32,000 nt of DNA from Breznakia blatticola (GTDB lineage Bacteria > Bacillota_I > Bacilli_A > Erysipelotrichales > Erysipelotrichaceae): positions 1 to 32,000 of the forward strand of contig NZ_SODD01000027.1 in NCBI RefSeq assembly GCF_004365815.1, in the 5' to 3' direction. The notes under the pieces are model-generated. The model searched no databases and had not been told where the DNA came from. It saw only the letters and a list, made by a program, of their open reading frames with translations. The position numbers and the translations under genes are program-made. Position 1 is the stretch's first letter; each line of letters opens with the position of its first letter. Positions 5,541 to 27,099 of the stretch are shown here, piece by piece.

Positions 5541-6763
5541 ATATTCTCCACTTTACTTGTCATTACATTTTTTAAAATTTCTACCATTTGCTTCATTTCA
5601 TCAATACAAAGGTATTCATATTTTCCATGGAAGTTATCTCCACCAGTACCTAAGTTTGGCGTCAATAATCCTTCATTAGATAAACGAGCTCCATCTGTTC
5701 CTCCACGAATTGGTTCATAGTGAACAGGAATCCCCATATCTTGCATCACCATACGGACATCATCCACAATATACATGTGATCTTTAAATAGTTCTGCCAT
5801 ATTGTAGTAACTATCTTCAATATCCACTTTGATGGTGTTTTTACCGTATGTAGCATTCATTGCATCTTGAATTGCGTAAAAATCTTGTTTTTGTGCTTCA
5901 AATTTCTCACGACTGTGATTGCGAATAATATATTCCAATGTTGCATACTCACTTTGTCCATTAAATAAAGTTAAGTGATTGAATCCTTCATAACCTTCGG
6001 TTTTTGCTGGATCTAAATCAAGTGGTAATGCCATATGGAATTCCATCGCTAGTTTACTTGCATTAAGTAGTTTATCTTTTGCACTTCCTGGATGGATGCT
6101 ATTTCCTTGTACATGTACTTTTGCACTTGCCGCATTGAAGTTTTCAAAGCTGATCACATTAATTTCAGCACCATCAATTGTATATGCATAATCTGCATCT
6201 ACTTTTTTTACATCAACATGATCTGCTCCATGTCCAATTTCTTCATCTGGTGTAAAGATAACTTTAATCGTTGGATGCTTAACATCGGGATGTTCTACAT
6301 AATACTGAATCAAATCCATAATAATACTTATCCCAGCTTTATCATCAGCACCAAGTAATGTTGTTCCATCGGTTACTAAAAGATCTTTTCCAATACAACG
6401 TTCCAAACTTGGAAACATTTTTGGATCCATTGTAATTTGTTCTTTCTCGTTTAAAACGATTGTCGAACCATCATAGTTTGTAATCAATCGTGGATGTACA
6501 TGTTTTCCACTCATATCACTACTTGTATCCATATGTGCAATTAAACCAATACAATCCACATCGTGTTCAACATTTTTTTCTAGTGTTGCATACACAACCC
6601 CATATTCACTTGTATACACATCAAGTAATCCAAACGCATTAAGTTGTTCTTCCAAGACCTTGGCTAACTCCAATTGACTTGCAGTTGAAGGAATACTTGT
6701 ACTCATTGGATCAGATGTTGTTTCCATTTTTGCATATGCAATAAAACGATCTACTATATTCAT
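5537..6763 (-). CDS. pepT: Peptidase T (M20B tripeptide aminopeptidase)
   Basis: Motifs HMDT, GADDKAG, FTPDEEIGHG and PIRGGTDG. I moved the start to the ATG at 6763 (MNIVDRF) because GGAAGG lies 7 nt upstream. The ORF-track start at 6778 is a TTG with no spacing to that RBS. Confidence 0.92.
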   Translation of the reverse strand: MNIVDRFIAYAKMETTSDPMSTSIPSTASQLELAKVLEEQLNAFGLLDVYTSEYGVVYATLEKNVEHDVDCIGLIAHMDTSSDMSGKHVHPRLITNYDGSTIVLNEKEQITMDPKMFPSLERCIGKDLLVTDGTTLLGADDKAGISIIMDLIQYYVEHPDVKHPTIKVIFTPDEEIGHGADHVDVKKVDADYAYTIDGAEINVISFENFNAASAKVHVQGNSIHPGSAKDKLLNASKLAMEFHMALPLDLDPAKTEGYEGFNHLTLFNGQSEYATLEYIIRNHSREKFEAQKQDFYAIQDAMNATYGKNTIKVDIEDSYYNMAELFKDHMYIVDDVRMVMQDMGIPVHYEPIRGGTDGARLSNEGLLTPNLGTGGDNFHGKYEYLCIDEMKQMVEILKNVMTSKVENI

Positions 6764-6889
6764 TTTCATACCTTCCAATTCATTTTTAACTACTGTTAAT
6801 TTCCTTATGTAATTCCTTTGTTTTTATACATAAGGACTACGTTTTTATTATACGATAATTTCGATAAAAGTGGTAAAAATGCTTGTAAA

Positions 6890-6898
6890 TGTTATACT
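6890..6898 (+). promoter_or_regulatory. Candidate extended -10 element (TGTTATACT), 6 nt upstream of the ATG at 6905
   Basis: TGnTATACT is seen directly. No Shine-Dalgarno lies between it and the ATG, so a leaderless transcript is possible. No good -35 element. Confidence 0.25.
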
Positions 6899-6904
6899 AA
6901 ATAT

Positions 6905-7612
6905 ATGAAAACATTATTACTAGCTGGAGAAATCACAGATTTCTTAAATGAGTTGTTTAACATCATCGATATTGAAGACATATTTAGCTTGATCTTTTTT
7001 ATCGTTGTAATGGTTGGAATTGTATCGAGTTCAAGCAAGAAAAAGAAACAACAGCAAATGAAATATCAAACGACTTATGTACCAAAGGAAATGAAACGCC
7101 AAAATGTACAAGTGGATTTAACAAGCAAAAGAAAAAGTGCACCTAGAGAAAAAAGTAAAGGTGCTGAAAAGAAAGGGATTTTCGCTCAAATTGCACAGTC
7201 GATTCAAGCTGGAATTGAAGAAGCAAATGCTGAAGCAAACAAGAAAAAAGCGAGCTTATATAAACCAAATCAAAGAGTGCAAGTAGATGTGACAAATCAT
7301 CAAATTTCAGATGAGCAACAAGACTTATATGAAGAAAGAAATCAAGCATATGAAGTACGCAAGAGATTTGAAAAAAACCATGCAAAAGCAGATAAGCAAA
7401 GTATTTTAGATACAACTATGGATGCACACGAACAAAACGTTCTTGATGCAGAAACTGCATACACCGCTGCATATGATTCACGAATAAGTAATGAATATCA
7501 AATGTTTGCTTGGGAACCTATTGTTCCTAAAGAAGCAATGGCTGCTGAGCCCGCAATAGAAGCAGAACCAGCACTATCCGTAGATGAAGAAAAAGGTTGG
7601 ATTATTATTTAA
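6905..7612 (+). CDS. Hypothetical membrane-anchored protein with a long Lys/Glu/Gln/Ala-rich low-complexity tail
   Basis: The only plus-strand ORF that does not shadow another gene. One hydrophobic helix (IFSLIFFIVVMVGIV) is followed by SSSSKKKKQQQ and a charged region. No family recognised. Start chosen at ATG 6905 because the TTG at 6818 has no RBS. Confidence 0.5.
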   Translation: MKTLLLAGEITDFLNELFNIIDIEDIFSLIFFIVVMVGIVSSSSKKKKQQQMKYQTTYVPKEMKRQNVQVDLTSKRKSAPREKSKGAEKKGIFAQIAQSIQAGIEEANAEANKKKASLYKPNQRVQVDVTNHQISDEQQDLYEERNQAYEVRKRFEKNHAKADKQSILDTTMDAHEQNVLDAETAYTAAYDSRISNEYQMFAWEPIVPKEAMAAEPAIEAEPALSVDEEKGWIII

Positions 7613-7626
7613 TAATCCAGCCTTTT
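7591..7626. terminator. Bidirectional hairpin terminator between convergent genes
   Basis: AAAAGGTTGGATTA (7591-7604) pairs with TAATCCAGCCTTTT (7613-7626), giving a 14-bp stem with one G-U. T-rich runs follow on both strands. It sits between the plus-strand gene end (7612) and the EIIA-Glc end (7639). Confidence 0.6.
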
Positions 7627-7638
7627 ATTTTGATGATT

Positions 7639-8127
7639 CTACTTTGTGATTAAACCAACAGTTTCTTGATTTGTGACATCTGTTGTTTCATGAAGTTGAA
7701 TCATAGCATCATCATCCATATTTGTCACAACTACAATGACAGTGGGGTCAATTTGTAATTGTTCCAACATCGCTAAGTCCATTTCGACTAGTGTTGTTGA
7801 TGCCTTAACTTTTTGGTTTTCTTTAATGAATATTTCAAATGGTTTACCGTTTAAATCAACCGTATTGATACCAATGTGTAAAATGACTTCATCGCCATTA
7901 TCTGATAGGATTCCGATTGCGTGTTTCGTTGGAAAAATACTGATAATTTTTCCTGAAACCGGTGAGGTAATGGTTCCATTTTTAGGATACACCGCATATC
8001 CATCTCCCATCATTTTCTGAGAAAACATTGGATCATTGACATCTTCAATATGCATTAACTTTCCAGATGCAGGAGAATACAAAGTCGTCGTATCGCTTAC
8101 ATCTCTTTTTTTAAAAATTCTCATCAT
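7639..8127 (-). CDS. PTS glucose-family EIIA component (EIIA-Glc type)
   Basis: 162 aa with GDGYAV, HAIGI and ILHIGINTV histidine motifs typical of PTS_EIIA_1. RBS GGAGAA lies 8 nt upstream. It overlaps the glcK end by 17 nt. Confidence 0.9.
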   Translation of the reverse strand: MMRIFKKRDVSDTTTLYSPASGKLMHIEDVNDPMFSQKMMGDGYAVYPKNGTITSPVSGKIISIFPTKHAIGILSDNGDEVILHIGINTVDLNGKPFEIFIKENQKVKASTTLVEMDLAMLEQLQIDPTVIVVVTNMDDDAMIQLHETTDVTNQETVGLITK

Positions 8128-9097
8128 ACTTTGCTTCTCCTTGAATTACCATTTGTGCTGCACCTGTTATCCCAGCATCATTACCAAGTGTGGCAAGTTT
8201 TATATCTGTTGATTGTCGAACAAGTGGAAATGCTACTTTTTCAAACACGCTTACAATTTTATGAAGTAGTATATTTCCTGCCTGTGATACGCCACCACCG
8301 ATAATCACGCTTTCTGGGTTTACTATATTGGCAATATTTGCACAAGCGACTCCAAGATCGTACGTAATTACATCTACGCCCTTGCATGCGAGCTTGTCAT
8401 TTTCTTTTACCAGATCAAACACGAGTTTCGCTGTTATTTCTTCATCATTTTCGATTGCTTTTTGAAGCTTTGAATCTTCCATAAATGTTTTACTTTCTAC
8501 ATATGCAACATTCACAATTCCAGTTGCACTTGCCACTGTTTCTAAACAGTTTTCATTACCACATGTACAAGTGAAACCATAATTTAAACTACTGTGTAAG
8601 TGCCCGATTTCTCCTGCACTATTTGCTGTTCCTGTAAGTATAGAATTGTTTATAACAACACCGCCACCGACTCCAGTACCTAGTGTAATAAATACGATAT
8701 TTGATGCATGACTTACACTTGCTTCCCCATACGCTGCACAGTTTGCATCATTGGTAAGATAAAGTGGCACATCTAAATCATATTGTTGGAATGTTTTACG
8801 GATATCCTGTGTTTTTGCCCATCCAAGGTTAAATGCATTTTTTACAGTTCCCTCTTCTTGGCTAACCACTCCAGGTGCACCTATTCCAATCCCTAATAGT
8901 TGTTTACTTGTATAGTTTTTGTCGACTAATGTTGAAAGGATTGACTTACACATATTTGGAACAATTTGTTTTCCTGCTTCGTTAGTGTCTGTTGGAATTG
9001 TCCAAGTTTCTAAACAAGTTCCTTCACTTGTATACATTCCAAACTTCGTAGTTGTTCCACCTAAGTCAATTCCAATTACGATATCTTTTTCATTCAT
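8111..9097 (-). CDS. glcK: ROK-family glucokinase
   Basis: Colinear with recalled Bacillus GlcK: GIDLGGTT, GIGAPG, NLGW, NDANCAAYGE, LGTGVGGG, GEIGH, zinc motif CTCGNENCLE, LGNDAG. Start set at ATG 9097 (MNEKDIVIGIDLGGT), an 8-nt overlap with the upstream gene's stop. Confidence 0.9.
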   Translation of the reverse strand: MNEKDIVIGIDLGGTTTKFGMYTSEGTCLETWTIPTDTNEAGKQIVPNMCKSILSTLVDKNYTSKQLLGIGIGAPGVVSQEEGTVKNAFNLGWAKTQDIRKTFQQYDLDVPLYLTNDANCAAYGEASVSHASNIVFITLGTGVGGGVVINNSILTGTANSAGEIGHLHSSLNYGFTCTCGNENCLETVASATGIVNVAYVESKTFMEDSKLQKAIENDEEITAKLVFDLVKENDKLACKGVDVITYDLGVACANIANIVNPESVIIGGGVSQAGNILLHKIVSVFEKVAFPLVRQSTDIKLATLGNDAGITGAAQMVIQGEAKYDENF

Positions 9098-9737
9098 TGA
9101 ATGCCACAACCTTTCCCACACCATTTTCGTAGGTAATCGTTGTCACACCAGAGTTTTTCAACTCTTGCTTTACAGGTATCGTTTCATCTACCATATGTAC
9201 AATTGTACGAATAACATTACCGTGTGTTACAACCATCAATTTGCTATCATCTTGATGCTTGTTTAAGATCATTTCAAGTCCTTTATTTAGTCGTGATTCT
9301 ACTTCCTTTTGGGTTTCCGCTTCGTTTGCTTGATCCACATCTTTAATTGCTAAAGCTATTTCATCTAAACTCAACGTTGTAAAGATATCACGCACTTCTA
9401 TATTTTTATTTTTTGCGACTTTGCCATACACATAGTCGCAAAAGCTACCATCCAGTGAGCCATAAAAGGTTTCACGGAATTCATACGTAGGGATGATTTT
9501 TGTTTCATCCCTATATGTATTTTCTGCCAAAATAAGATTTGCAGTTCGTATGGTTCTGCCCAGATCGCTTGTATAAATTACATCAAATTTTTCATTTTCG
9601 AGACGTTTGCCTGTCGCAATTGCATCTTCTTCCCCTTTTTGTGTTAAAGGTGCATCAGACCAACCTTGCATTTTTTTGTATTTATTTAAATACGTTTCCC
9701 CGTGCCGAATAAAATAAATCGTTACTTTATTACCCAT
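9090..9737 (-). CDS. Histidine phosphatase family protein (phosphoglycerate-mutase-like; likely a sugar-phosphate phosphatase)
   Basis: 215 aa with N-terminal IYFIRHGETYLN (catalytic RHG), SDLGRT, and a late THGNVIR histidine. Confidence 0.85.
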   Translation of the reverse strand: MGNKVTIYFIRHGETYLNKYKKMQGWSDAPLTQKGEEDAIATGKRLENEKFDVIYTSDLGRTIRTANLILAENTYRDETKIIPTYEFRETFYGSLDGSFCDYVYGKVAKNKNIEVRDIFTTLSLDEIALAIKDVDQANEAETQKEVESRLNKGLEMILNKHQDDSKLMVVTHGNVIRTIVHMVDETIPVKQELKNSGVTTITYENGVGKVVAFNE

Positions 9738-9768
9738 TGTCTACACCATTTCCTTACTATTTGAAACC

Positions 9769-10755
9769 TTATTCACTTAATAATGTTTCCAATTGCTTAA
9801 TTTGACGTTTTGTAAATTCTGTACCACCACAATATAATTCATCTTCATACTCACAAATTAAATATCCATCAAATGACGTTTCTTTAATTGCAGCAATAAT
9901 TTCTGGATATGGGATACTTGCTTCTACACAGTTTTCATCTAGGTAGTGGAATTTACAGTGCATCTCAAAGCAATATGGCATGATACGTTTCATACCTTCT
10001 AATAATGCAGGCAGTTGCTCTTTACTTTTGAATTGTACGAATCCATACATTCCTTGCAACACACCATTGATTGCAGGGTGTGCATTTGCTTCTGTAAGTT
10101 TTGCTCTTGCTTCTTCAATATCCACACCAGCATAGCGCATATCTGCAGCCATTTGTAAGTGTTCTTCTTTTACTCCAGCTTGAAGTGCTTTCATCCATTG
10201 TGGTTTATTTGGTGCAATTGAGAAACATCCAAAGTCAGGAATAAATCCTAAATACTTTGATCCAGTCTTTTCAATCACTGCTAAGTATTCCATCATTTTT
10301 GGTGAAGTTGGTGTTTCTGGATTATGAATTTCGATACCAACATGCACATCATAAAGTTCAGCATATGGCGCCAAACGTTCAAATGCACTTGGTGATAACA
10401 TATATTGTGCACGCATCACCTTACACCCTAATGCATTTGCTGTTTTTAAATCAATGATTGTATCTGCAAGCATTTCATCATCACTTAAATCGCGATCATG
10501 ACGCATTCCACGATCGTTATTTGCTCCATAACTTACTGGACCAATTCCATACGTTTCTTTTAATCTAGTAACCAATCCAAGAAATTCATCACTTACATTT
10601 GGATACGATGGTAACATTTGTGTCCCAACAATTTCATAACCAGTAGCTCCGGCAAGCGCTGCTTGTTTTACACATTCTTCAAAATCATATTCATATCGTG
10701 CATATTCTGTTCCATAACAGAATAAAGTAGCACCTATTTTCATATTTGTATTCAT
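9769..10755 (-). CDS. Xylose-isomerase-like TIM-barrel protein; candidate C-glycoside deglycosidase alpha subunit (DgpC/CarB-like)
   Basis: 328 aa. The metal-site pattern of the AP_endonuc_2/xylose isomerase-like fold is visible: GIEIHNPE, IPDFG, HCKFH, CEYE. It lies immediately downstream of a DUF6379-like small gene and a Gfo/Idh/MocA gene, matching the dgpA-dgpB-dgpC order I recall. The fold call is solid; the specific function is inference. Confidence 0.6.
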   Translation of the reverse strand: MNTNMKIGATLFCYGTEYARYEYDFEECVKQAALAGATGYEIVGTQMLPSYPNVSDEFLGLVTRLKETYGIGPVSYGANNDRGMRHDRDLSDDEMLADTIIDLKTANALGCKVMRAQYMLSPSAFERLAPYAELYDVHVGIEIHNPETPTSPKMMEYLAVIEKTGSKYLGFIPDFGCFSIAPNKPQWMKALQAGVKEEHLQMAADMRYAGVDIEEARAKLTEANAHPAINGVLQGMYGFVQFKSKEQLPALLEGMKRIMPYCFEMHCKFHYLDENCVEASIPYPEIIAAIKETSFDGYLICEYEDELYCGGTEFTKRQIKQLETLLSE

Positions 10756-10763
10756 CTTAGTTT

Positions 10764-11198
10764 CTACTCCTCTACACGTACATCAAGTACATCTCCACTA
10801 TCAAGAGGCATGTACATATGTCCCGGTCCTATATTCATATATGGAACACGTAACATTAATTTCAACTCAATTTTGTGGTTACCTTTTGCCAACCCACCTT
10901 TTTTAATTACATGAATGGTTGCAGGTTCTACTTGACTCCAAAATTCAGTAATTGCATATTTTAATTTGTATACAGGAAGTTCCTTATTACGATATGCAAA
11001 CGTAACTGCTTCTTGATCAACTTTTTCTCCATCGATATACACTTCAAGTAGATCGATATCAGAAAGATAATGACCTCTATAATATCCTAGTTGTACATCA
11101 AAGCTAAATCCATTGCGTTTATTATTGATATACATGTCTTTGAAGGAATCTTTTTTTATAATCTCTTCATTTAATTGCATTCTCATTGCAAAAGCCAT
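10764..11198 (-). CDS. Small DUF6379-like protein; candidate C-glycoside deglycosidase beta subunit (DgpB/CarC-like)
   Basis: 144 aa with good RBS (GGGGGAAAG). The size, the LGYYRGHYLS-type segment and its position between an oxidoreductase and a TIM-barrel gene match my recollection of the CGD beta subunit family. No HMM was run. Confidence 0.55.
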   Translation of the reverse strand: MAFAMRMQLNEEIIKKDSFKDMYINNKRNGFSFDVQLGYYRGHYLSDIDLLEVYIDGEKVDQEAVTFAYRNKELPVYKLKYAITEFWSQVEPATIHVIKKGGLAKGNHKIELKLMLRVPYMNIGPGHMYMPLDSGDVLDVRVEE

Positions 11199-11209
11199 GT
11201 TCTTTCCCC

Positions 11210-12313
11210 CTAAAATTTAATCTCTTTATTTTCAGCTGCTGATTTATAAATTGCATCTAATACTTTTGTAACTGCTAAAGCTTCTTCTGGTTTTACTAGT
11301 GGTTCTGTTCCATTTACAACAGCTTCTAACCATTGTTTTGCATCGATGGTACCTTCTTCACCACCACCGCCACCGAAGTATGCGACACCACCAACAGGTG
11401 ATAATGTTTCTTCCATTAATTGGTTGTTTTTTCCACGGTTATAGATCAATTCATTTTTTCCATAACTCATTCCTGAGTGAATTTCTGCACCAGCTTTTGT
11501 ACCACAAAGTGTAGTTGATGCTTCTCTTGATTCAAGAATATTTAAAGCCCAGCTTGCTTCAAGGTTAATTGTTGCTCCATTTTTCATCTTAATGAATCCC
11601 ATGGCTGAATCTTCAACTTCATATGTTTTTGGATCCCATGGTCCAAATAGGTTTCCTTCTGTTGCTTGTTCTAATCCACCAAGCTTATAAAACACAGATC
11701 CATTTACACTATCTACATCATAGTTATTCATACACCATAAAGTTATATCCAATGCATGTGTTCCAATATCAATTAATGGTCCCCCACCTTGTGCTTCTTT
11801 GTCCATGAATACTCCCCATGTAGGTACTCCTCTACGACGTACTGCATGTGCTTTTCCATAATAGATATCTCCAAGTTCACCATCTGCACATGATGCATGT
11901 AAGTTTTGAACTTCTGGACGGAAACGGTTTTGGTATCCAACCGTAAACTGCATTCCTGATTTCTTCCAAGCTTCTACCATTTTCTCTGCTTCTGTACTGC
12001 TGTGTGACATTGGTTTTTCACAGTACACGTGTTTTTTTGCATCAAATGATGCAATTGCAATCTCACTATGCGACACATTTGGTGTACAAATGTGCACTAC
12101 ATCTACATCAGGGTTTTGCAACACTTCATGATAATCTGTTGTCACTTGTGCGCCTTTGATTCCAAATTCATTTGCGGCTTTTATTGCACGCTCTTCAATT
12201 AGGTCACAAAATGCAACCATTTCACATAAATCTGCATTTTTTTTCAGTGCCGGGAATTGTTTTTGATTAGCAATTCCTCCACATCCAATAATCGCTACTC
12301 TTAACTTTTTCAT
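11210..12313 (-). CDS. Gfo/Idh/MocA-family NAD(P)-dependent oxidoreductase (DgpA-like position; candidate glycoside 3-oxidase)
   Basis: 367 aa. N-terminal Rossmann motif VAIIGCGGIANQ, then the CEKPM motif typical of the family. RBS AAGAGG 7 nt upstream. Confidence 0.85.
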   Translation of the reverse strand: MKKLRVAIIGCGGIANQKQFPALKKNADLCEMVAFCDLIEERAIKAANEFGIKGAQVTTDYHEVLQNPDVDVVHICTPNVSHSEIAIASFDAKKHVYCEKPMSHSSTEAEKMVEAWKKSGMQFTVGYQNRFRPEVQNLHASCADGELGDIYYGKAHAVRRRGVPTWGVFMDKEAQGGGPLIDIGTHALDITLWCMNNYDVDSVNGSVFYKLGGLEQATEGNLFGPWDPKTYEVEDSAMGFIKMKNGATINLEASWALNILESREASTTLCGTKAGAEIHSGMSYGKNELIYNRGKNNQLMEETLSPVGGVAYFGGGGGEEGTIDAKQWLEAVVNGTEPLVKPEEALAVTKVLDAIYKSAAENKEIKF

Positions 12314-12331
12314 ATATTTGACCTCTTCTTT

Positions 12332-13246
12332 CTATATCACAAAGTTTCTTAAATATTTCGTACTAATTGCGACTGCCTTCTTGGCATCATCATATGTTTT
12401 TTCAAACGCCTTATCTTCTACCTCAATACATGTATATCCATTAAATCCAATATCCGTTAATGCAGATACATATTCTGCCCAATCTACATCTCCAAGTCCT
12501 GGTACTTTTGGTGCCATGTATTCAAGTGGCGTTGCCATAACTCCGACATCTTTTAGTTTTTCTTGATACACTTTAATATCTTTATAGTGCACATGATAGA
12601 TGCGATCCTTAAATTCGTATAACGGTGCAATGTAATCAATTTGTTGCCAAATAAAGTGTGATGGATCATAGTTGATTCCTAAACGTTTACTAGGCAATAA
12701 TTCAAATACTTTTCGCCAGTTAGCTGGTGAAGTCATTAAATTTTGACCTCCTGGCCATTCATCATTTGTAAATAACATCGGACAATTTTCAATTGCAATA
12801 TTTACATCATTTGCTTCAGCTACATCTAATATTGGCTGCCAAATACCAACTACATCTTTTAGATTTTCGTCAACGGATTTTTTTGAATCCCGACCGATAA
12901 ATGTTGTTACTGTTTTTACACCATAAGCATTAGCTGCTTTAATTACTTGTTTTAAGTGTTTAGTATAATACTCACGTTTACTTACATCTGGATCCATCGT
13001 ATTTGGATAATATGCAAGTGCTGAGATTTCAACACCCTTTTGCATACAATAATCCAAATTTTCTTGAATCGTTTTCTCACTTAAGTCATATACATCAATG
13101 TGCGAAACTCCTGCATATCGTCTTTCCGCTTTTCCCTTTGGCCAACATGCAACTTCTACACACTCCAATCCGTTCATTGCGACAATATCGATCATTTCTT
13201 TGAAATCACTTTGATCTAAAATCGCACTTACTAATCCTAATTTCAT
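12332..13246 (-). CDS. Sugar phosphate isomerase/epimerase-type TIM-barrel protein (second copy)
   Basis: 304 aa with the metal-site pattern AIENCP, NYDPSHF, HVHYKD, CIEVED. Confidence 0.85.
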   Translation of the reverse strand: MKLGLVSAILDQSDFKEMIDIVAMNGLECVEVACWPKGKAERRYAGVSHIDVYDLSEKTIQENLDYCMQKGVEISALAYYPNTMDPDVSKREYYTKHLKQVIKAANAYGVKTVTTFIGRDSKKSVDENLKDVVGIWQPILDVAEANDVNIAIENCPMLFTNDEWPGGQNLMTSPANWRKVFELLPSKRLGINYDPSHFIWQQIDYIAPLYEFKDRIYHVHYKDIKVYQEKLKDVGVMATPLEYMAPKVPGLGDVDWAEYVSALTDIGFNGYTCIEVEDKAFEKTYDDAKKAVAISTKYLRNFVI

Positions 13247-13255
13247 ACTATCTCC

Positions 13256-14308
13256 TTACTTCTCAAATAAAATTGCTTGATTTGTTTCACTTGATTTCCA
13301 AGCCGCTTCCATAATCGCTAGTACACGACGTACCTCTTCATGTTTTACAAGTTGTTCTTCTTTACCATTTACTACATTTACAAAGTTTTGATAGAAATCT
13401 GTCCAGTCCGTTTCTACAGTTGGTAATTCTTCTGAATATAGTGCCCCTGCAGGTTGTGGTGCAAATTGACGTGTAGGACCAGCTACTGTTTCTGCAATTT
13501 GTGCAGGCAGTTTGTCTAACAATTCACTTGTTCGCCATATTTCTCCATCACAAGCAAATGTATTAATTTTTAAAGTCCCTCGATTTCCTGCCACCAACCA
13601 ACGCGGTTGATAATTCAAGACATAGGTTCCTAGTTCAATATGATATGTAATCCCATTATCGAATTTTAAAAGTATTTTAAAGTAATCATCTACTTCATAA
13701 TTAATGATGCTTTTTAAATCAGCAAATACACTTAGAACTTTTGCGCCTTTCATCATTTGGCATGCTTGGTCGATTAAATGAACTCCCCAATCGTATAGCA
13801 TTCCACCACCGTATTTTTTATATAGGTGCCATTCATGAATTCTTCCATTTGCTGTATGAAGTTTTGATTCAATCGTGAAAATATCACCAATCATATGTTC
13901 TTCATAAACTTTTTTTGCAATTCGAAAATCACGATCCCAACGTCTGTTTTGATGTACCATCATCGTTACGTTGTTGTTTTCTACCGCTTTTACCATTTCG
14001 TCGTATTCTGCAGTATTTAATGCTGCTGGTTTTTCATCAATAATATGTTTTCCAGCATTTGCAGCTTTTATCACCATTTCTTTATGTAAGTGATTTGGAA
14101 CTGTAATCAATACTGTATTTACTTCTGGATTCGCTAATAAATCCTCGACATCTTTGTATGCTGGATATCCCAAATCAATTGCTTCTTGACGCTTTGTATC
14201 ATCAATCTCACATACTGCGACAATTTCTACTCCCTTCACTCGAGTAGCATTTTGTTCGTGCCATTTACCCATGCCACCAAAACCAATGATTCCTAATTTA
14301 ACGTTCAT
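13256..14308 (-). CDS. Gfo/Idh/MocA-family oxidoreductase (second copy)
   Basis: 350 aa with LGIIGFGGMGKWH Rossmann motif and DEKP motif. First gene of the operon, with RBS GAGG upstream. Confidence 0.88.
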   Translation of the reverse strand: MNVKLGIIGFGGMGKWHEQNATRVKGVEIVAVCEIDDTKRQEAIDLGYPAYKDVEDLLANPEVNTVLITVPNHLHKEMVIKAANAGKHIIDEKPAALNTAEYDEMVKAVENNNVTMMVHQNRRWDRDFRIAKKVYEEHMIGDIFTIESKLHTANGRIHEWHLYKKYGGGMLYDWGVHLIDQACQMMKGAKVLSVFADLKSIINYEVDDYFKILLKFDNGITYHIELGTYVLNYQPRWLVAGNRGTLKINTFACDGEIWRTSELLDKLPAQIAETVAGPTRQFAPQPAGALYSEELPTVETDWTDFYQNFVNVVNGKEEQLVKHEEVRRVLAIMEAAWKSSETNQAILFEK

Positions 14309-14335
14309 ATGTTTAACCTCATCTTTTCTATCTTT

Positions 14336-14341
14336 ATTTTA
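14336..14341 (-). promoter_or_regulatory. Candidate -10 box (TAAAAT) of the oxidoreductase/TIM-barrel operon
   Basis: TAAAAT lies about 30 nt upstream of the ATG at 14308. The hexamer at 16-18 nt spacing is a poor -35, consistent with an activator-dependent promoter. Weak evidence. Confidence 0.3.
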
Positions 14342-14412
14342 CGAAGATTGGGACATTTCATCTTCCCGTTTTTTATCGCGAAGTTGATGATTTACATCCT
14401 TGTTTTCCATTG

Positions 14413-14455
14413 AAAATAAAAAAAAGACAAAATTTGTGATACATTTTTTGTCTTT
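14413..14455 (-). terminator. Rho-independent terminator of the AraC-family gene
   Basis: On the minus strand: AAAGACAAAA-(13 nt loop)-TTTTGTCTTT, then TTTTTATTTT. It starts directly at the stop codon (14456). Confidence 0.6.
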
Positions 14456-16774
14456 CTAATTCTTTATTAATCCACAATACATTGTAGATATTTGGTTTGG
14501 TGCTAAATCAATATCAACTGTCAAAATTTCATTGGTAACATGAACCTTTTTAATCATAAGATCTGGACTCGATTTTCTTGCTAGATGATCAATATCCATA
14601 CCAGTTACAAAGTTCACATAATCCCATTTCTTCCACTCATCAATTAGACTTCCGCTCGTTGTACTGATGGTAAACATTCGTACTTCATATTCTCCATTTG
14701 TTACACCTTCTAAGTGAAACCGGAACGATTTTGATTCATTATGGAAGAGCTGATTAATATCATTCACATGGATTTTATCTTTTTTAATATACATGGAAGG
14801 TTCGATATGACAGTAGTTGTTACACAGAATTCCAATATCATATCCTTCATCAATTGTCGCAATATAATTTGCATTTTTACCAATCACTTCACTACGCAAA
14901 TGATGATAAAACTTATATCCGTAAAATGCAGGTTTGTAGATACCTTGTCGATTCAATAGCCCATATGAACCATTGAGTAATTCGTTGGTATTTTTTGCAT
15001 CTATAACCACATCACACATAACATCATAAGCAATCTCATCCACTTCATCAGAAATACTTTGTAGACTTCGCACAACGTATGCTCCTTTAAAGCACGTATC
15101 ATTAACATAGTCTGGATATATTTTCGAGTAATTCCATGAAGTTACATATAGTGGTAAATCTTGGTATTTTGTTTGCTTAAGTTGCTTTTTTACTTCTGCT
15201 ACATCATTTGCTAATTTATCGTTATTTCCAATGTCCTTTAATTTCGTTTGTGAATCAATCGTATAACTATGCATGGTGATGAAATCAAATACTACATTTT
15301 GTTTCTCTAGTTTTTCAAATACATCATTATTCGCATAACCCACTTCAAATCCCACACCACCAATTTTAAAGTTATTACTATAACTTTTTAGCAACATGAA
15401 TATTGCTTTATATAGTTTTGCATAACGCGAGCTATTTAAGTTACTTTGATTACTTAATTCAAAACGATACTTCCCGACATTCACAATCATAAATTGATTG
15501 ATCAAAAACGACATGAATTTACGTAGTACTTCTTTGTATATATCAAGGTATTGTTCAAACATATCTGCATCTTGATCATTTACTTGATACTTTGCAAATG
15601 CAGGTGTTTCAAGTTCAATCATGACAGGAATATTATTTCGAATAAGAAAATTGAAAACGTTTTGGATTTTGTCATAATCTAAAAATACTTCATCATTTTC
15701 GATGGATACAATATTTTCACTAAAGATATCAATGATTCGAAACGATTCAATTCGCAATGATTTCCGCGTTTTCAACAACTGTTCTTGCACTTGAAATTCA
15801 AGCAACTTATGCGCTGGTCCAACATTCATCATTTTGGTAACTTGAAGACGTTGCGGTTTATGTTTTCTTACATCTAGTGTAATCTCCTCATGCATCGTTT
15901 TATTTTTATATTCATAGTTGAACTCTTTTAACTGTTCAACAACTTTCTCATTTTGGTCTATTGCTAGTTCTGCTTTATGTTCTTCTTGATATTGTTGACG
16001 ATATAAAGAAGGTGTTGTTTTGTATGCTTCCTTGAATGATTTATTAAATGCAGTGGTACTAGCAAATCCATGATCCACTGCTATTTGTGTAATATTTTTA
16101 TCCGTTAGTTCTACATCTTCAATCGCTTTCATTAACCTCACTTGATTAATAAAATCAATGAAATTCTTTCCTGTCTCTTGCTTAAAGTATCTAGAGAAAT
16201 AAGAAGAAGACATATAGAAGTGAGAAGCGATATCATCTAAGGATAAGCGTATATTATAGTTTGTATAAATATATTTTAAAATACTTTCCAATCGTGTATC
16301 ATAATCATCACTTTCAAGTTCCATATGATAATTTGTGACTAGCACATCAAGAAATTGAAATCCTAATTCAAAATACTTATAAGGAAACTTCTTATCATTA
16401 CTTGCGAATGTTGATATTAAGTGATGCATTGTATCGCGCAACATGGAATGATTTAGTGCGGTATTTTTTACAGAGTTACAATCAAAGCGAATGGTATTGT
16501 TTTGTAAGGAATCGCGCAATACGTATAATGGAATGACAATTTCACAAACCATTAATTCTTTACTTTGACTATGAATCTCAAAATTTTCTCCATAGTTAAC
16601 AAGTAAGAAATCATCCTTCATCAATGTGAATGATTCTTCTTGCTTATCAATAACTAGTGATCCAAAGACGACATAGAAAAACACAACACTTAATTCATGT
16701 CGTTTGTAGTCATTTACATCTGTTAGAATTTGAAATCCACTTTTTGAATCGAAGCTATTGAATATATTGTACAT
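14456..16774 (-). CDS. AraC-family transcriptional regulator fused to a C-terminal GH39-like (beta-xylosidase-like) domain lacking both catalytic glutamates
   Basis: 772 aa. An N-terminal cupin-like region is followed by an AraC HTH at about aa 160-260 (LSLDDIASHFYMSSSYFSRYFK...GFASTTAFNKSFK). The C-terminal ~470 aa are colinear with recalled Thermoanaerobacterium XynB (GH39): FELSNQSNL vs FEIWNEPNL, KLYK...KIGG vs KLYK...KVGG, DFITMHSYT vs DFVSRHAYT, LYVTSWNYS vs FHITEYNTS, GSYGLLNRQGIYKPAFYGYKF vs [21 protein letters not shown]. Confidence 0.85.
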   Translation of the reverse strand: MYNIFNSFDSKSGFQILTDVNDYKRHELSVVFFYVVFGSLVIDKQEESFTLMKDDFLLVNYGENFEIHSQSKELMVCEIVIPLYVLRDSLQNNTIRFDCNSVKNTALNHSMLRDTMHHLISTFASNDKKFPYKYFELGFQFLDVLVTNYHMELESDDYDTRLESILKYIYTNYNIRLSLDDIASHFYMSSSYFSRYFKQETGKNFIDFINQVRLMKAIEDVELTDKNITQIAVDHGFASTTAFNKSFKEAYKTTPSLYRQQYQEEHKAELAIDQNEKVVEQLKEFNYEYKNKTMHEEITLDVRKHKPQRLQVTKMMNVGPAHKLLEFQVQEQLLKTRKSLRIESFRIIDIFSENIVSIENDEVFLDYDKIQNVFNFLIRNNIPVMIELETPAFAKYQVNDQDADMFEQYLDIYKEVLRKFMSFLINQFMIVNVGKYRFELSNQSNLNSSRYAKLYKAIFMLLKSYSNNFKIGGVGFEVGYANNDVFEKLEKQNVVFDFITMHSYTIDSQTKLKDIGNNDKLANDVAEVKKQLKQTKYQDLPLYVTSWNYSKIYPDYVNDTCFKGAYVVRSLQSISDEVDEIAYDVMCDVVIDAKNTNELLNGSYGLLNRQGIYKPAFYGYKFYHHLRSEVIGKNANYIATIDEGYDIGILCNNYCHIEPSMYIKKDKIHVNDINQLFHNESKSFRFHLEGVTNGEYEVRMFTISTTSGSLIDEWKKWDYVNFVTGMDIDHLARKSSPDLMIKKVHVTNEILTVDIDLAPNQISTMYCGLIKN

Positions 16775-16789
16775 ACTGACCTCTCTTTC

Positions 16790-16798
16790 ATCATACCA
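16790..16798 (-). promoter_or_regulatory. Candidate extended -10 (TGGTATGAT) for the AraC-family gene
   Basis: TGnTATGAT on the minus strand, about 16 nt upstream of the ATG at 16774 and just downstream of the EIIBC terminator. No convincing -35. Confidence 0.3.
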
Positions 16799-16810
16799 AA
16801 TCTAAAATGG

Positions 16811-16835
16811 AAAAGGTGAAAGTTTTTCTTTCACC
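16811..16835 (-). terminator. Rho-independent terminator of the PTS EIIBC gene
   Basis: On the minus strand: GGTGAAAG-aaaaa-CTTTCACC (perfect 8 bp), then TTTTCCATTTT. It lies 14 nt after the stop at 16849. Confidence 0.6.
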
Positions 16836-16848
16836 TGATCGATTTGTA

Positions 16849-18231
16849 TTATACTTTTAATTTCTTTTCGACACTTTCGCTCCAACCAAACATGTACGTT
16901 AAACCAAAAGCTAAGACTAATGAAGCAACTGCTCCTAATAATGCTCCATAGAATCCCATGTCAATTCCTGCTGGATTAATAAGTGCTGGAATACCTAAGA
17001 TTCCTGTACCAAATGTATATCCTTTTCCACCAAGTAGTGAAGCAATTAATCCTCCAAGTGCTCCTCCTGCTAAACCAAAGATAAATGGTTTTCTTGCTGG
17101 AACATTAATACCAAATAATGCTGGTTCTGTAATTCCAAATAATCCAGATACTGCTGAACCTACACAAACTTGTGTAACGGCTTTGTTTTTTGAACGCAAT
17201 CCGAATCCAAGTACTGCTCCAGTTTGTCCCATTGCAGAAGCAAAGAACACGATCGCAATTAATGGACAATATCCCATTGCTGCAAGATTTGCAATAAAGA
17301 TTGATGAGAATGCTTTACTTACTCCAAATAAAACAAGTAGTTGCCAAATTCCACCTACAAGTACTCCAGTGATTAATGGACTAAATGCATACAATGCTTG
17401 AATTGCATCAGTAATGAATGACATTACTGCAGTTAATACAGGCCCAATAATTAAGAATGCAAGTGGTGTTACTACACACAATACAATCATTGGCACAAAA
17501 ATCATCTTTAAAATATCTGGAACGATTTTTCTAGCAAACTTCTCAACGATTGCTGCCAAATATGTTGATAAAATAATTGGGAATACCGTTTTTGAATAAT
17601 TAACTAATGTTAATGGAAGAGCAAACAATGTTAACTGTTGTCCTTCATTTACCGCATTAATGATTTCAGGTGTGATCATTGCACATGCGATAATCATTGC
17701 ATAGAATGGTTTTCCACCGAATTTCTTAGCTGATGTATATGCTAAGAAGATCGGGAAGTAATAGAAGATTGCATTACTAATTGCATATAGCACTAGATAT
17801 GATCCACTCGTTGGATCTAACCATTTCAACATTACAAATAATGATAAGAACCCTTGTAGTGTACCACTTGCTGCTAACACACCAACGATAGGTACAAAGA
17901 TTGCCGAAGCAATATCCGTAATTTTATCAAGCAATGAAGCATTTTTATCTGTCTCTGAAGATACTTCTACTTCACCTCCAGCTTTTGCTGGATATATTTT
18001 AGCTGCTTCTTCATAGTAACTAGATACTGCATTACCAATCACTACTTGCAATTGTCCACCAGCATCGATGATTCCCATTACACCATCAGCTTTTGCAAGT
18101 TCTTCATCATTCACTTTCTTACGATCAACTAAAATAAATCGTAGTCGCGTAAAGCAATGACTAAATGATTGCACATTATCAATACCACCAACTAAATCGA
18201 TTATTGTTTTTACATTTTCTTTTACACTCAT
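16849..18231 (-). CDS. PTS EIIBC component, glucose superfamily, beta-glucoside/sucrose/trehalose branch
   Basis: N-terminal EIIB with phospho-cysteine motif SHCFTRLRF, followed by a multi-helix EIIC. No EIIA domain. Start set at ATG 18231 (MSVKENVKTII) with RBS AGAGGAGAG; the ORF-track start at 18282 is a GTG without an RBS. Confidence 0.9.
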   Translation of the reverse strand: MSVKENVKTIIDLVGGIDNVQSFSHCFTRLRFILVDRKKVNDEELAKADGVMGIIDAGGQLQVVIGNAVSSYYEEAAKIYPAKAGGEVEVSSETDKNASLLDKITDIASAIFVPIVGVLAASGTLQGFLSLFVMLKWLDPTSGSYLVLYAISNAIFYYFPIFLAYTSAKKFGGKPFYAMIIACAMITPEIINAVNEGQQLTLFALPLTLVNYSKTVFPIILSTYLAAIVEKFARKIVPDILKMIFVPMIVLCVVTPLAFLIIGPVLTAVMSFITDAIQALYAFSPLITGVLVGGIWQLLVLFGVSKAFSSIFIANLAAMGYCPLIAIVFFASAMGQTGAVLGFGLRSKNKAVTQVCVGSAVSGLFGITEPALFGINVPARKPFIFGLAGGALGGLIASLLGGKGYTFGTGILGIPALINPAGIDMGFYGALLGAVASLVLAFGLTYMFGWSESVEKKLKV

Positions 18232-18316
18232 ATTATCTCTCCTCTTTGTGAAATCAAGTTTGTCTAATTTGTTTTCTAACACACTGATACTTATGTTGAA
18301 TCAAGACCTCCTTTTG

Positions 18317-18330
18317 TGTAAGCGCATACA
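18317..18330. promoter_or_regulatory. cre-like CcpA operator candidate in the EIIBC leader
   Basis: TGTAAGCGCATACA compared with the recalled cre consensus TGWAANCGNTNWCA: one mismatch in either orientation. It lies about 85 nt upstream of the EIIBC start. Confidence 0.4.
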
Positions 18331-18543
18331 TATCATAACGCAAGAATAGAGTCTTATCTTTCGCTTTTTTTACATGTAATCTACGAAAAAAGAACTTTTG
18401 ATTTTACAAACATAAGAAAATGTAAAAATATATCACACGTTTTTTTACTTAAGTTTAACTGGTATTGAGTTTTCTGGCTAAAAGACTACTAAATTATGAT
18501 GTTTAACCGTAAAACTATTTCTTACGGATGATCTCTTATCTTT

Positions 18544-18572
18544 ACTATACCGATTATTTTATCTCCTCACAA
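18544..18572 (-). promoter_or_regulatory. Candidate sigma-A promoter for the EIIBC gene
   Basis: On the minus strand: TTGTGA-17 nt-TATAGT, immediately downstream of the preceding operon's terminator. If used, the leader is about 300 nt. Confidence 0.3.
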
Positions 18573-18589
18573 TATAATCCTTAATATAA

Positions 18590-18620
18590 AAAATCTACAC
18601 CATCTCTTGGCATAGATTTT
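18590..18620 (-). terminator. Hairpin terminator after the membrane-anchored HAD gene
   Basis: AAAATCTA (18590-18597) pairs with TAGATTTT (18613-18620), with an inner CCA/TGG pairing. A T-run follows on the minus strand. It starts 4 nt after the stop at 18624. Confidence 0.45.
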
Positions 18621-18623
18621 CTT

Positions 18624-19625
18624 TTATATACATTGAATGACAATCAATACAATCCACAACAAACCTAGTGTAATATTTTGAATTACCTTGTTTTTATATA
18701 GTGGATCTTTGTATCGATCACGATACCGATTATAACTTTGTTTAAAAAAGAATAGAGAAATATAAAAATAGCTTACATAAAGTGGAAAACAGTATAATGA
18801 AATACCTAGTCCAATAAGATATAACAAGATCTTCCAATGCATATTCAAAATAGGTTTTTGTCGTTTATCCAAATGTTCATTAATAATGTCTGAGACATCA
18901 TCAACTATTGCACTAGCTATTGACTTCACTTCTTCGTTTCCAATATTCATCGCATATCCGTGAAAGATTTCAATCATTTGTTTATCGTTTCCGCCATCTC
19001 CAACAACAAGAACTTTATCACTCTTAGGTAAATGATGATCCAACAACCATTGTAATGATGTTGCCTTGTTATCGTGTAATCCATTTACATCGATTGTTTC
19101 AATATTTGGATGAAAAGATACTTCACTACCATACGCCTCTCGTAATAATTTCGTGGCTGTTTTCACTTTATCATATGTATCAAAGCGCATATCTATTCCA
19201 TAATAATCATATTTTTCAATTTCATCGAGTTCAATTTCTTTCGTGTAATAATTATAAGTGCTTGCAGCTTCATTATCACTTTCAACTACCATACGCTCAA
19301 ATCCAGCAGATAAAATATAATATACACTACTTCGCACGATTGGATCACATATGATTTTCTTTGCCAAACTTCCTGGAAACTTTGCTTCATAGATAGGCTT
19401 ATACGCACTGTTATACACAACTGAACCATTATTACATACTGCAAAATGAAATGGGATTTTGTATTTGTCTATATCTTTTTTCAACGTCAAAATATCTCGT
19501 CCAGTCACAAAGATGAAGATATTTCCTGCATCTATCCAATTTGTAATTGCATCTACTGTTTTTTTCTTTATTTCACCTTTCGAATTTGTTAGTGTTCCAT
19601 CCACATCACTTGCTAATACTTTCAT
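18624..19625 (-). CDS. Cof-type HAD-IIB phosphatase with a C-terminal membrane anchor (2-3 predicted TM helices)
   Basis: 333 aa with HAD motif I (ASDVDGTLT) and motif IV (VGDGGNDKQM). About aa 264-333 (18627-18836) are strongly hydrophobic: WKILLYLIGLGISLYCFPLYVSYFYISLFFF and ITLGLLWIVLIVIQCI. RBS AAAGGAGG. Confidence 0.8.
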   Translation of the reverse strand: MKVLASDVDGTLTNSKGEIKKKTVDAITNWIDAGNIFIFVTGRDILTLKKDIDKYKIPFHFAVCNNGSVVYNSAYKPIYEAKFPGSLAKKIICDPIVRSSVYYILSAGFERMVVESDNEAASTYNYYTKEIELDEIEKYDYYGIDMRFDTYDKVKTATKLLREAYGSEVSFHPNIETIDVNGLHDNKATSLQWLLDHHLPKSDKVLVVGDGGNDKQMIEIFHGYAMNIGNEEVKSIASAIVDDVSDIINEHLDKRQKPILNMHWKILLYLIGLGISLYCFPLYVSYFYISLFFFKQSYNRYRDRYKDPLYKNKVIQNITLGLLWIVLIVIQCI

Positions 19626-19638
19626 AATCCTCCTTTAG

Positions 19639-19665
19639 AAAAAAGGTAGGTTGACCTACCCTTTT
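19639..19665 (-). terminator. Intra-operon hairpin terminator/attenuator between dhaL and the HAD gene
   Basis: On the minus strand: GGTAGG-tcaa-CCTACC with an A/U extension, followed by TTTTTT. The 5' arm overlaps the dhaL stop codon. The HAD gene's RBS follows immediately. Confidence 0.55.
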
Positions 19666-20273
19666 ACACTGATTTCAAATGCTTCAAATAATAATACAGC
19701 TACATATGCTCCTGGATCTAGTAAATCTCTAGAAGCTTCTCCTCTTGTTGCTGCACGTCCATGTTTGGCAATCATTGTCGCAGTTTGTTCATATCCTTGT
19801 CTAGCTGCTTTACTTGCTTTACTTGCTAATTGCGCTAATGGAAGTTCTATGTTTTCTTTTAATACTTGAACTGCTGGATCAATTCCATCAATAAATGTTT
19901 TTTCACCAACGTTTGCCTTACCTCGATTGATAACACCTGCTTCAAAACTGTCAAAGAACTGCACCCAGTTTTCATTTGTAAGTTCATTTTGATTTCGTAA
20001 ATCTTTTCCTGCTTGCATCAAACCAGAAGCCATAAGCGTTCCCATCGTTGATGGCACTGCACTTGCCATGGCTTTTCCACCAGCATATACAAGTTTTCCT
20101 AGATCTTGTTCATCAGTATCTTTGACTGCAAGATATGCAGCACGAAATCCATCTGACATAGTAAGTCCTAAATCTCCATCACCAACAATTTGATCCATTT
20201 CGATAAGTGTATCTTTATTTTCTTGCATGATGTTAGCAACAACTTCAAGATATCGTTTCATGTCTTGTAACAT
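19656..20273 (-). CDS. dhaL: Dihydroxyacetone kinase L (nucleotide-binding) subunit, copy 1
   Basis: 205 aa with the DhaL signature VGDGDLGLTMSDGF (Mg-binding Asp cluster), in an all-helical Dak2-sized protein. Confidence 0.85.
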   Translation of the reverse strand: MLQDMKRYLEVVANIMQENKDTLIEMDQIVGDGDLGLTMSDGFRAAYLAVKDTDEQDLGKLVYAGGKAMASAVPSTMGTLMASGLMQAGKDLRNQNELTNENWVQFFDSFEAGVINRGKANVGEKTFIDGIDPAVQVLKENIELPLAQLASKASKAARQGYEQTATMIAKHGRAATRGEASRDLLDPGAYVAVLLFEAFEISVKG

Positions 20274-20281
20274 ATTGCCTC

Positions 20282-21292: not shown

Positions 21293-21299
21293 ATAGAAC

Positions 21300-21962: not shown

Positions 21963-21970
21963 AGTTCCTC

Positions 21971-24034: not shown

Positions 24035-24053
24035 CCTTACCCCCTGTTTCTAT

Positions 24054-25697: not shown

Positions 25698-25698
25698 A

Positions 25699-27069: not shown

Positions 27070-27099
27070 AAATTTAAACTCTCCTCTTTTGTTTTCTTA

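Follow-up and report, generated by a model that had tools for sequence, protein, structure and literature searches.

A probable aryl C-glucoside operon of the Dgp kind, joined to a phosphotransferase system and a phosphatase, in Breznakia blatticola

In a 32,000-nt stretch of DNA from Breznakia blatticola (the window), a module of five minus-strand genes (9769–14308) belongs to an operon that we consider probably to be a chromosomal system by which aryl C-beta-glucosides are taken up and degraded, related O-glucosides probably among its substrates too, and which is orthologous to the dgp cluster of strain PUE. The operon comprises eight genes, the module being followed downstream by genes for a histidine phosphatase, a ROK glucokinase and the EIIA component of a phosphotransferase system (PTS), and this larger context of PTS, phosphatase and kinase had been missed by an earlier note on the same DNA. 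Ordinary glycosidases make little headway against C-glycosides, among them puerarin, vitexin, orientin and mangiferin, whose bioactivity hinges on C–C cleavage by microbes. The core of the system is of the known Dgp kind; the PTS–phosphatase front end and the assignment of a hydratase appear to go beyond the descriptions found. PUE is a human-gut strain, whereas B. blatticola, of the Erysipelotrichaceae, lives in the insect gut; the Dgp system would thereby be extended to such a host.

The earlier note had described five tightly packed genes, and the coordinates and lengths of the open reading frames (ORFs; 350, 304, 367, 144 and 328 aa) match that description exactly, with intergenic gaps of 8, 11, 18 and 9 bp in the ORF list. 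Pfam bears out the families it had proposed for the neighbours of the small gene: the 328-aa and 304-aa proteins match AP_endonuc_2 (1.4e-13 and 2e-36), and the 367-aa and 350-aa proteins both carry the N- and C-terminal GFO_IDH_MocA domains. With DgpA of strain PUE (7xr9) the 367-aa protein shares 81% identity, the match spanning residues 1–366 (684 bits, 5.2e-205). Functional residues were taken from two published studies (PMC8563793; PMC9939296) and mapped onto the window proteins by alignment. The sugar pocket of DgpA (K100, R159, W166, D182, H186, F223 and E264) is identical at every position, and F189 of the cited DgpA paper does not map, being D189 in both sequences.

Public annotations suggest a cluster for inositol or inosose, or a generic ‘sugar phosphate isomerase’ cluster, an outcome that the earlier note had also allowed for. 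The source labels include ‘scyllo-inositol 2-dehydrogenase’ and ‘inosose dehydratase’, and a weak similarity to IolG and IolE is indeed found. The scores against the NCBIfam equivalogs, however, are 146.8 and 104.2 for IolG, the lower belonging to the DgpA-like protein, against a cut-off of 355, and 44.7 for IolE against 290; no other iol genes are present, and a CGDB subunit together with so close a DgpA relative are specific markers. The inositol reading is effectively refuted by the equivalog cut-offs, and we give it hardly any credence.

The small protein had been likened to the DUF6379 subunit of the lyase, and a failure to match that family or the known beta subunits was to count against the reading; no such failure arose, for it matches PF19906 (CGDB) with 118 bits against a cut-off of 27.6 (E=2.3e-34), over profile positions 2–112 of 112. 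Compared with the solved beta subunits of C-glycoside deglycosidases (CGDs), it is 55% identical to 9m3a_B (2.5e-46) and 38% identical to DgpB of PUE (7bvr_B, 1.5e-25). The 328-aa protein, whose gene lies 8 bp away, matches the solved alpha subunits 9m3a_A (1.3e-119, 55% identity), DgpC of PUE (7bvr_A, 1.6e-98, 47%) and AgCGD2 (7dnm_A, 2.8e-36), so that the best solved matches of the pair are the two subunits of the 9m3a enzyme (‘xylose isomerase’ and DUF6379; 403 and 161 bits). The Mn site of CGDs is made of one His, two Glu, one Asp and one Lys (PMC8563793), and the DgpC ligands E141, D173, H263, K265 and E299 are all kept in the 328-aa protein, as E142, D174, H266, K268 and E302, at positions that are invariant across 89 homologues. 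The Glu/Asp/His/Glu pattern noted earlier in both barrels is likewise confirmed, as E142/D174/H266/E302 here and as E153/D194/H220/E275 in the 304-aa protein. Also kept are the catalytic base (H143 of DgpC, H144 here) and E301 of DgpC (E304 here), a residue important for C-cleavage and of little effect on O-cleavage (PMC9939296). Homology, conserved residues and a gene order, dgpA–dgpB–dgpC, common to the window and PUE (7xr9, 7bvr) thus uphold the earlier equation of oxidoreductase, small gene and TIM barrel with DgpA, DgpB and DgpC. Judged by its sequence, the lyase is a divergent subtype, at most 55% identical to any solved enzyme and to our knowledge without a close characterised representative, and it may differ in aglycone specificity.

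It might be expected that a system of this kind would act chiefly on aryl or flavonoid O-beta-glucosides, taken up by a beta-glucoside (Bgl)-type PTS and opened by a 3-keto, beta-elimination route, with C–C cleavage as a side activity. The earlier note had warned that O-glycosides could be the substrates, and the warning was fair. DgpA/B/C of PUE also cleave and isomerise O-glucosides (PMC9939296). The DfgC/DfgD pair, induced by puerarin, cleaved O-glucosides only; aryl O-glucosides are, as NCBIfam names indicate, the classical cargo of Bgl-type PTS; and the 350-aa oxidoreductase and 304-aa barrel of the module (hereafter GFO350 and TIM304) could form an O-glycoside oxidase and eliminase pair, enzymes that perform both elimination and hydration being documented. 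We nevertheless think this unlikely, given that the beta subunit and the equivalent of E301, which matters mainly for C-cleavage, are strictly conserved, that an O-glucoside-6-phosphate imported by a PTS normally needs one phospho-beta-glucosidase, which makes a seven-enzyme route hard to justify if O-glucosides were its sole substrates, and that GH1 genes occupy separate neighbouring modules in two of the related clusters (L010 and L079).

In the C-glucoside route that we favour, the substrate would be taken up by the Bgl-type PTS (EIIBC with EIIA) and phosphorylated on O-6'', as protein family and gene context suggest, and the histidine phosphatase, from its gene context, would strip the 6''-phosphate before oxidation. 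DgpA should then oxidise the glucosyl 3''-OH, and the DgpB/DgpC pair with Mn2+ should remove H-2'' and break the bond between C1'' and the aglycone to give the aglycone and 2-hydroxy-3-keto-glucal; for both steps strong homology and conserved residues argue. TIM304, on remote homology and its pattern of conservation, may hydrate 2-hydroxy-3-keto-glucal to 3-keto-glucose, which could be returned to glucose by transhydrogenation on DgpA, by GFO350, or by both; 3-oxo-glucose is a published hydride acceptor for DgpA of PUE. The ROK kinase, by its family, would convert glucose to glucose-6-phosphate. The likely glycoside sensor, which would induce the operon, is an AraC-type regulator whose GH39-like domain has lost both catalytic glutamates.

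The enzyme genes form a single transcription unit (14308–7639), with spacings of 8–31 bp or overlapping genes and hairpins at its flanks; a gap of 31 bp separates the module from the phosphatase gene and overlaps follow thereafter, that of EIIA and ROK being 17 nt. Upstream of the module lie the gene for the AraC/GH39-like regulator and then that for the beta-glucoside-type EIIBC. The PTS has what defines the glucose/beta-glucoside family: the phosphorylatable Cys of EIIB, the EIIC domain, and EIIA-Glc as a protein of its own with both His residues. EIIBC matches the beta-glucoside-specific subfamily of NCBIfam at 3.9e-138 and carries the EIIB Cys motif HCFTRLRF. In the phosphatase the RHG at 11–13 and the second catalytic His172 are intact, and against the NCBIfam equivalogs it falls below every cut-off, so it is no known phosphoglycerate mutase or CobC.

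Comparison with other genomes ties the phosphatase to the mode of uptake. The DgpC-like protein was scanned against one genome per species, which gave 75 loci, and 76 loci were classified by the same-strand genes within 9 kb. A phosphatase is present in 11/11 PTS-linked loci versus 0/65 others, an association that represents perhaps two to four independent origins, not eleven; it is absent both from the loci with an MFS_2 symporter (n=27) and from those in which no transporter was detected (n=38). All eight loci with a lactose/cellobiose-type PTS (Enterococcus, Vagococcus, Carnobacteriaceae and Lactovum) carry a Cof-type HAD phosphatase, and all three with a Glc/Bgl-type PTS (the window, Breznakia pachnodae and Lactovum) carry a histidine phosphatase. 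Two unrelated phosphatase folds, one for each PTS family, are hard to explain unless the phosphate added by the PTS must go. A glucokinase is kept in the PTS-linked clusters, which implies that free glucose is produced, and MFS-linked and PTS-linked loci do not differ in the DgpA pocket or in the active site of DgpC, which fits an unphosphorylated glucosyl substrate after dephosphorylation.

All ten genes recur in unchanged order in the locus of B. pachnodae, with 64–91% identity, and relatives of the phosphatase, at 48–73% identity, occur in four further Bgl-type PTS clusters, of which three hold the dgp set. These three came from a search seeded with the phosphatase, which found relatives of 52–57% identity, one from Enterococcus hulanensis and two on metagenomic contigs; their clusters encode AraC/GH39, GFO, TIM, DgpA, CGDB, DgpC, His-phosphatase, (ROK), EIIA and EIIBC proteins, with the PTS genes in three different arrangements. 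The relative in Ca. Galacturonibacter soehngenii (48%) has an 889-aa protein in place of the dgp set, and the PTS-plus-phosphatase module may also serve other glycoside-degrading enzymes. In that cluster (L079:2260–9666) an AraC/GH39 regulator, a Bgl-type EIIBC and the histidine phosphatase surround the 889-aa protein, which gave no match in Pfam or PDB and resembles the alpha-L-rhamnosidase BT4145 family only weakly, at its C-terminus (2e-11).

These comparisons also bear on the alternative that the Dgp enzymes act on the 6''-phospho-glycoside itself, in the manner of GH4, the phosphatase working later or being unrelated, or that the PTS genes are mere neighbours. The products of a PTS are phosphorylated, C3 oxidation of 6-phospho-glycosides is established in GH4, and EIIBC is transcriptionally apart from the enzyme genes. 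Yet the DgpA pocket is identical in PTS-linked loci and in MFS-linked loci, where a phosphorylated substrate is impossible, and a direct release of glucose-6-phosphate would make the glucokinase unnecessary; the EIIA gene, moreover, lies inside the enzyme operon and overlaps ROK, and PTS, phosphatase and dgp genes are found together repeatedly, in several lineages and in differing orders. We therefore regard this alternative as quite improbable.

A broader proposal, to which we give even chances, is that C-glycoside catabolism moved onto the PTS at least twice in Bacilli/Erysipelotrichia, each time with a recruited phosphatase, and that TIM304 is the missing hydratase. If true, the phosphatase clade would be a new functional class, that of aryl-glucoside-6''-phosphate phosphatases, and the operon would give the first indication of PTS transport of C-glycosides; a literature search returned no paper linking the PTS to C-glycoside metabolism, the source paper of the 9m3x structures, possibly relevant, not being covered. 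The phosphatase rule, if it holds, would explain how, in Bacilli, a phosphorylated import product that is ‘incompatible’ with a pathway for free glucosides can nevertheless enter it, and it would provide a function for two groups of proteins now labelled only ‘phosphoglycerate mutase’ or ‘Cof-type hydrolase’. The use of maltose by E. faecalis offers a precedent, with the PTS transporter MalT and the maltose-6'-phosphate phosphatase MapP (PMC3633101). The logic there is alike, in that a phosphatase bridges a phospho-glycoside made by a PTS to an enzyme unable to use the phospho-form; the maltose route differs in its unrelated phosphatase fold, its other substrate and the phosphorylase downstream, which makes this an analogy, not a homology.

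The earlier note had suggested hydration of the keto-glucal as a possible task of the extra TIM barrel, and this has gained support. A profile of 23 TIM304 sequences matched SCO6571 (2zds; 5.6e-19), MJ1311, AtHYD of Agrobacterium tumefaciens (8ro4; 1e-7) and IolE (1.3e-6); neither CGD alpha nor the O-glycoside eliminase (OGE) of A. tumefaciens was among its matches to solved structures. With the AlphaFold model (pLDDT 82), 2zds came first and AtHYD next (E=3e-16, TM 0.77), with sugar epimerases behind. AtHYD is thus the nearest characterised relative by both profile and fold, and the motifs YDPSHF...H.KD...E.E are common to the two, although an identity of ~19% does not amount to proof. The residues concerned in TIM304 are E153 (IENCP), D194 (YDPSHF), H220 (HVHYKD) and E275 (IEVED), which by analogy with the family would be metal ligands. 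Orthologues of TIM304 remain ~70% identical from Breznakia to Enterococcus, Listeria and Clostridium, that is across orders, while the lyase subunits drop to 40–55% among relatives; conservation of TIM304 alongside divergence of DgpB and DgpC fits a substrate on the sugar side and not on the aglycone side. The enzyme that hydrates ‘hexose enediolone’ to 3-oxo-glucose is still listed as unidentified in the literature, and TIM304 is, with moderate confidence, a reasonable candidate for the hydratase of the pathway. Elimination and hydration have near-identical transition states and single enzymes are documented to catalyse both, so that the hydratase and O-glycoside eliminase readings of TIM304 are compatible. 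DfgC (AKC35075 / EIM58371) and DfgD (AKC35076 / EIM58370), which are puerarin-induced yet active on O-glucosides only and which we take to be one Gfo-type and one TIM-type protein, may be homologues of GFO350 and TIM304.

The role of GFO350 is harder to assign. Its nearest solved relative is ‘DgpA2’ of P581a (9m37; 7.6e-100, 338 bits, 45% identity), one of the P581a/W974-1 Dgp proteins (9m37, 9m3b, 9m3d). It keeps K93, W160, D173 and H177, the catalytic Lys, Asp and His among them, and its pocket differs from that of DgpA twice, with N154 for R159 and Q234 for E264. GFO350 may reduce 3-keto-glucose, oxidise a second class of glycosides, or both. That it is instead a second glycoside 3''-oxidoreductase of other aglycone specificity or regiospecificity (for 6-C-glucosides, for instance), and not a 3-keto-glucose reductase, is a possibility we rate at somewhat below even. 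The crystallisation of DgpA2 with isoorientin, the retained catalytic residues beside two altered sugar-pocket positions, and the ability of DgpA alone to regenerate glucose from 3-oxo-glucose would all suit such an enzyme. The DgpA2-type proper, however, is a separate group in Enterococcus-type loci, ~70% identical to 9m37; in most loci GFO350, syntenic in 29/76, accompanies TIM304 and not the lyase genes; and the last reduction falls to a Gfo enzyme in the comparable pathways of A. tumefaciens and of levoglucosan breakdown. In public records TIM304 and GFO350 bear generic labels only.

Several observations weigh against the reading of the operon given here, in addition to the small number of independent origins behind the PTS–phosphatase association. 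The route is wasteful, as import costs a phosphoryl group and glucose then costs ATP. Between EIIBC and the enzyme operon lie the regulator gene and a hairpin, and co-regulation is assumed. The aglycone-patch residue Y11 of DgpC is F12 here, the sole change among the mapped residues, and with a lyase pair that shares just 55% of its residues with the nearest solved CGD, and 47%/38% with DgpC/DgpB of PUE, the substrate is not nameable. Beyond the low identity of TIM304 to AtHYD, the uncharacterised SCO6571 ranks higher, and DgpA2 of P581a, the relative of the proposed reductase GFO350, was crystallised with the C-glycoside isoorientin and not with 3-keto-glucose.

The closest known system remains dgpA–H of PUE, and the relation can be read through two loci (L059 and L061) with the order DgpA–DgpB–DgpC–MFS_2–AraC/GH39–GFO350–TIM304–ROK. 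In PUE, DgpF is a Gfo protein and the dgp cluster includes transporters; the eight genes of L059 and L061, with Gfo sixth, fit the published dgpA–H. The accessory set of PUE (second Gfo, second TIM, AraC/GH39 and ROK) would match this order, the composition of D–H being itself inferred, and the window would then hold counterparts of dgpA, B, C, E, F, G and H. The window differs from PUE in its more distant DgpC and DgpB and in having the accessory genes upstream instead of downstream, and from Clostridia-type clusters in having EIIBC, EIIA and the histidine phosphatase in place of the MFS_2 permease. The dfgABCDE set of Eubacterium cellulosolvens shares the five-gene logic, with two oxidoreductase-type proteins, two TIM-type proteins and a small beta subunit (the types of DfgC and DfgD presumably as given above); DfgA/B act as lyase, DfgE as oxidase and DfgC/D as O-glucosidase, and DfgB (7bvs_B, 2.6e-13) and DfgA (7bvs_A, 4.1e-24) are far more distant than the Dgp proteins. 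The GlycDH/AtOGE/AtHYD/Gfo pathway of A. tumefaciens, the levoglucosan Lgd enzymes of Bacillus smithii and the BT/AL clusters of Bacteroides and Alistipes follow the same four-step chemistry with a final Gfo-type reductase; they differ in that their lyases do not cleave C-glycosides, their first oxidase is of FAD or periplasmic type, and neither PTS nor phosphatase is involved. Coordinates of the window features are collected in Table 1.

Table 1. Genes and regulatory features of the dgp-like locus in the window
Feature	Position	Strand	Basis or remark
Bidirectional terminator hairpin, strong, 16 pairs	7591..7626	.	13 bp past EIIA stop
PTS EIIA (Glc type), last operon gene	7639..8127	-	PTS_EIIA_1 6.3e-49; His69 + His84
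ROK-family glucokinase	8111..9124	-	NCBIfam ROK_glcA_fam 279.8 bits, cut-off 260.35; DLGGT motif
Histidine phosphatase (branch 1), proposed phospho-glycoside phosphatase	9090..9737	-	His_Phos_1 8.7e-35
DgpC-like CGD alpha subunit, 328 aa, predicted Mn-dependent C-C lyase	9769..10755	-	9m3a_A, 7bvr_A
DgpB-like CGD beta subunit, 144 aa	10764..11198	-	PF19906 CGDB and solved beta subunits
DgpA orthologue, predicted NAD-dependent glycoside 3''-oxidoreductase, 367 aa	11210..12313	-	7xr9
TIM304, xylose-isomerase-like TIM barrel (DgpG-like), candidate 2-hydroxy-3-keto-glucal hydratase	12332..13246	-	
GFO350, second Gfo/Idh/MocA oxidoreductase (DgpF-like), 350 aa	13256..14308	-	9m37 ‘DgpA2’
Low-GC hairpin and T-run, AAAGACAAAA...TTTTGTCTTTTTTTTATTTT	14413..14455	-	Directly 3' of regulator stop
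One-component regulator, 772 aa, AraC-type helix-turn-helix (HTH) and GH39-like domain	14456..16774	-	HTH_18, HTH_AraC, Glyco_hydro_39
Terminator-like hairpin, 9 pairs (4 G-C), then TTTCCATTTT T-run	16814..16836	-	Between EIIBC and regulator
PTS EIIBC, beta-glucoside (Bgl) type, 460 aa	16849..18231	-	Pfam PTS_EIIB and PTS_EIIC
Cre-like palindrome TGTATGCGCTTACA (cre, catabolite-responsive element)	18317..18330	-	EIIBC leader, between -10-like TATGAT and ribosome-binding site

The regulator has its HTH at residues ~176–261 and its GH39-like domain at 316–738, and it is similar to AryK over its full length, below the cut-off. Gln and Ser replace the acid/base Glu (of the NEP motif) and the nucleophile Glu of GH39 (E160 and E277 of XynB correspond to Q443 and S546), so that the domain, while sharing the GH39 fold, falls outside the active GH39 hydrolases and is best read as a ligand-sensing pseudo-glycosidase. 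An extension of this reading to all such regulators was rejected, as the Glu at the nucleophile position is kept in 42/49 homologous regulators; the acid/base column aligns poorly among the 49, and the ‘dead’ state holds for the two Breznakia proteins only. Homologues with an AraC HTH and a GH39-like domain were seen in 41/76 dgp loci (e.g. L003:528–2933, L027:238–2649 and L078:1698–4073). Genomes of Catenibacillus contain 21 and 28 genes listed as ‘GH39 CAZymes’ in a strain without beta-glucosidase and xylosidase activity (PMC11170127), and AraC/GH39 regulators may account for these high counts.

The hairpin directly after the regulator stop went unflagged by the automated scan, having too few G–C pairs, and a similar one stands at the same place in B. 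pachnodae; its position implies that the enzyme operon has a promoter region of its own (14309–14412). The 14-mer TGTATGCGCTTACA in the EIIBC leader is identical at the equivalent site in B. pachnodae and one mismatch away from what we take to be the cre consensus, and it may mark CcpA-mediated catabolite control; a scan of 7000–19700 with the strict consensus found no site. A shared operator motif in 14309–14455 and 18232–18623 was sought and rejected, the best 16-mer agreeing at 13/16 positions and being matched in 61/100 shuffles. An Rfam scan of 6500–19800 at E<=0.1 yielded no riboswitch or RAT-like element.

The identical locus, with the same gene calls, stands on a public assembly contig (L076), and three of the proteins, those of 304, 215 and 350 aa, match NCBI records of B. 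blatticola at 100% identity; G+C across the region is even, at 0.31–0.39. The longest ORF of EIIBC reaches GTG 18282 and the public gene call begins at ATG 18231. The ROK gene overlaps the phosphatase gene, and ATG 9097 may be its true start, matching the 327-aa protein of B. pachnodae. After EIIA, the B. pachnodae locus has a 157-aa AP_endonuc_2 TIM-barrel fragment (L001:13137–13610), 29% identical to TIM304 and absent from the window, which is probably a gene remnant.

The loci of the Enterococcus, Vagococcus, Carnobacteriaceae and Lactovum type (L008, L009, L014, L018, L037, L070, L071 and L028; e.g. L009:8551–20722) have an architecture of their own. TIM304, DgpB and DgpC are followed by a SnoaL-like 114-aa protein, a DgpA2-type Gfo (~70% to 9m37) and DgpA (66%), then by a second, divergent CGD pair (~30%), the Cof-type HAD and a Lac-type EIIC with EIIB, with ROK and EIIA further on. 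The SnoaL-like protein is also found in L080 and in some Clostridia loci.

Around the operon, a convergent plus-strand ORF (6818–7612) uses the same bidirectional terminator; it encodes 264 aa from a TTG (235 aa in L076), a protein rich in Lys and Glu, with a single hydrophobic stretch at its N-terminal end, for which a Pfam search gave no match. A HAD (Cof-like) hydrolase gene (18624–19625), which is not conserved at this place in B. pachnodae, lies between EIIBC and a separate sugar cluster on the minus strand (19656–27857), which encodes two Dak1/Dak2 (dihydroxyacetone-kinase-like) pairs, a class II aldolase, a galactitol-type PTS EIIC, an EIIA-2 and a PRD/Mga-type regulator with an EIIA-2 domain. 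At the start of the window stand two paralogous ROK-family genes (740–1636 and 1772–2665) and a DUF3284 gene (300–743), DUF3284 being a domain of CelI from the cellobiose PTS locus of E. faecalis (PMC11976118).

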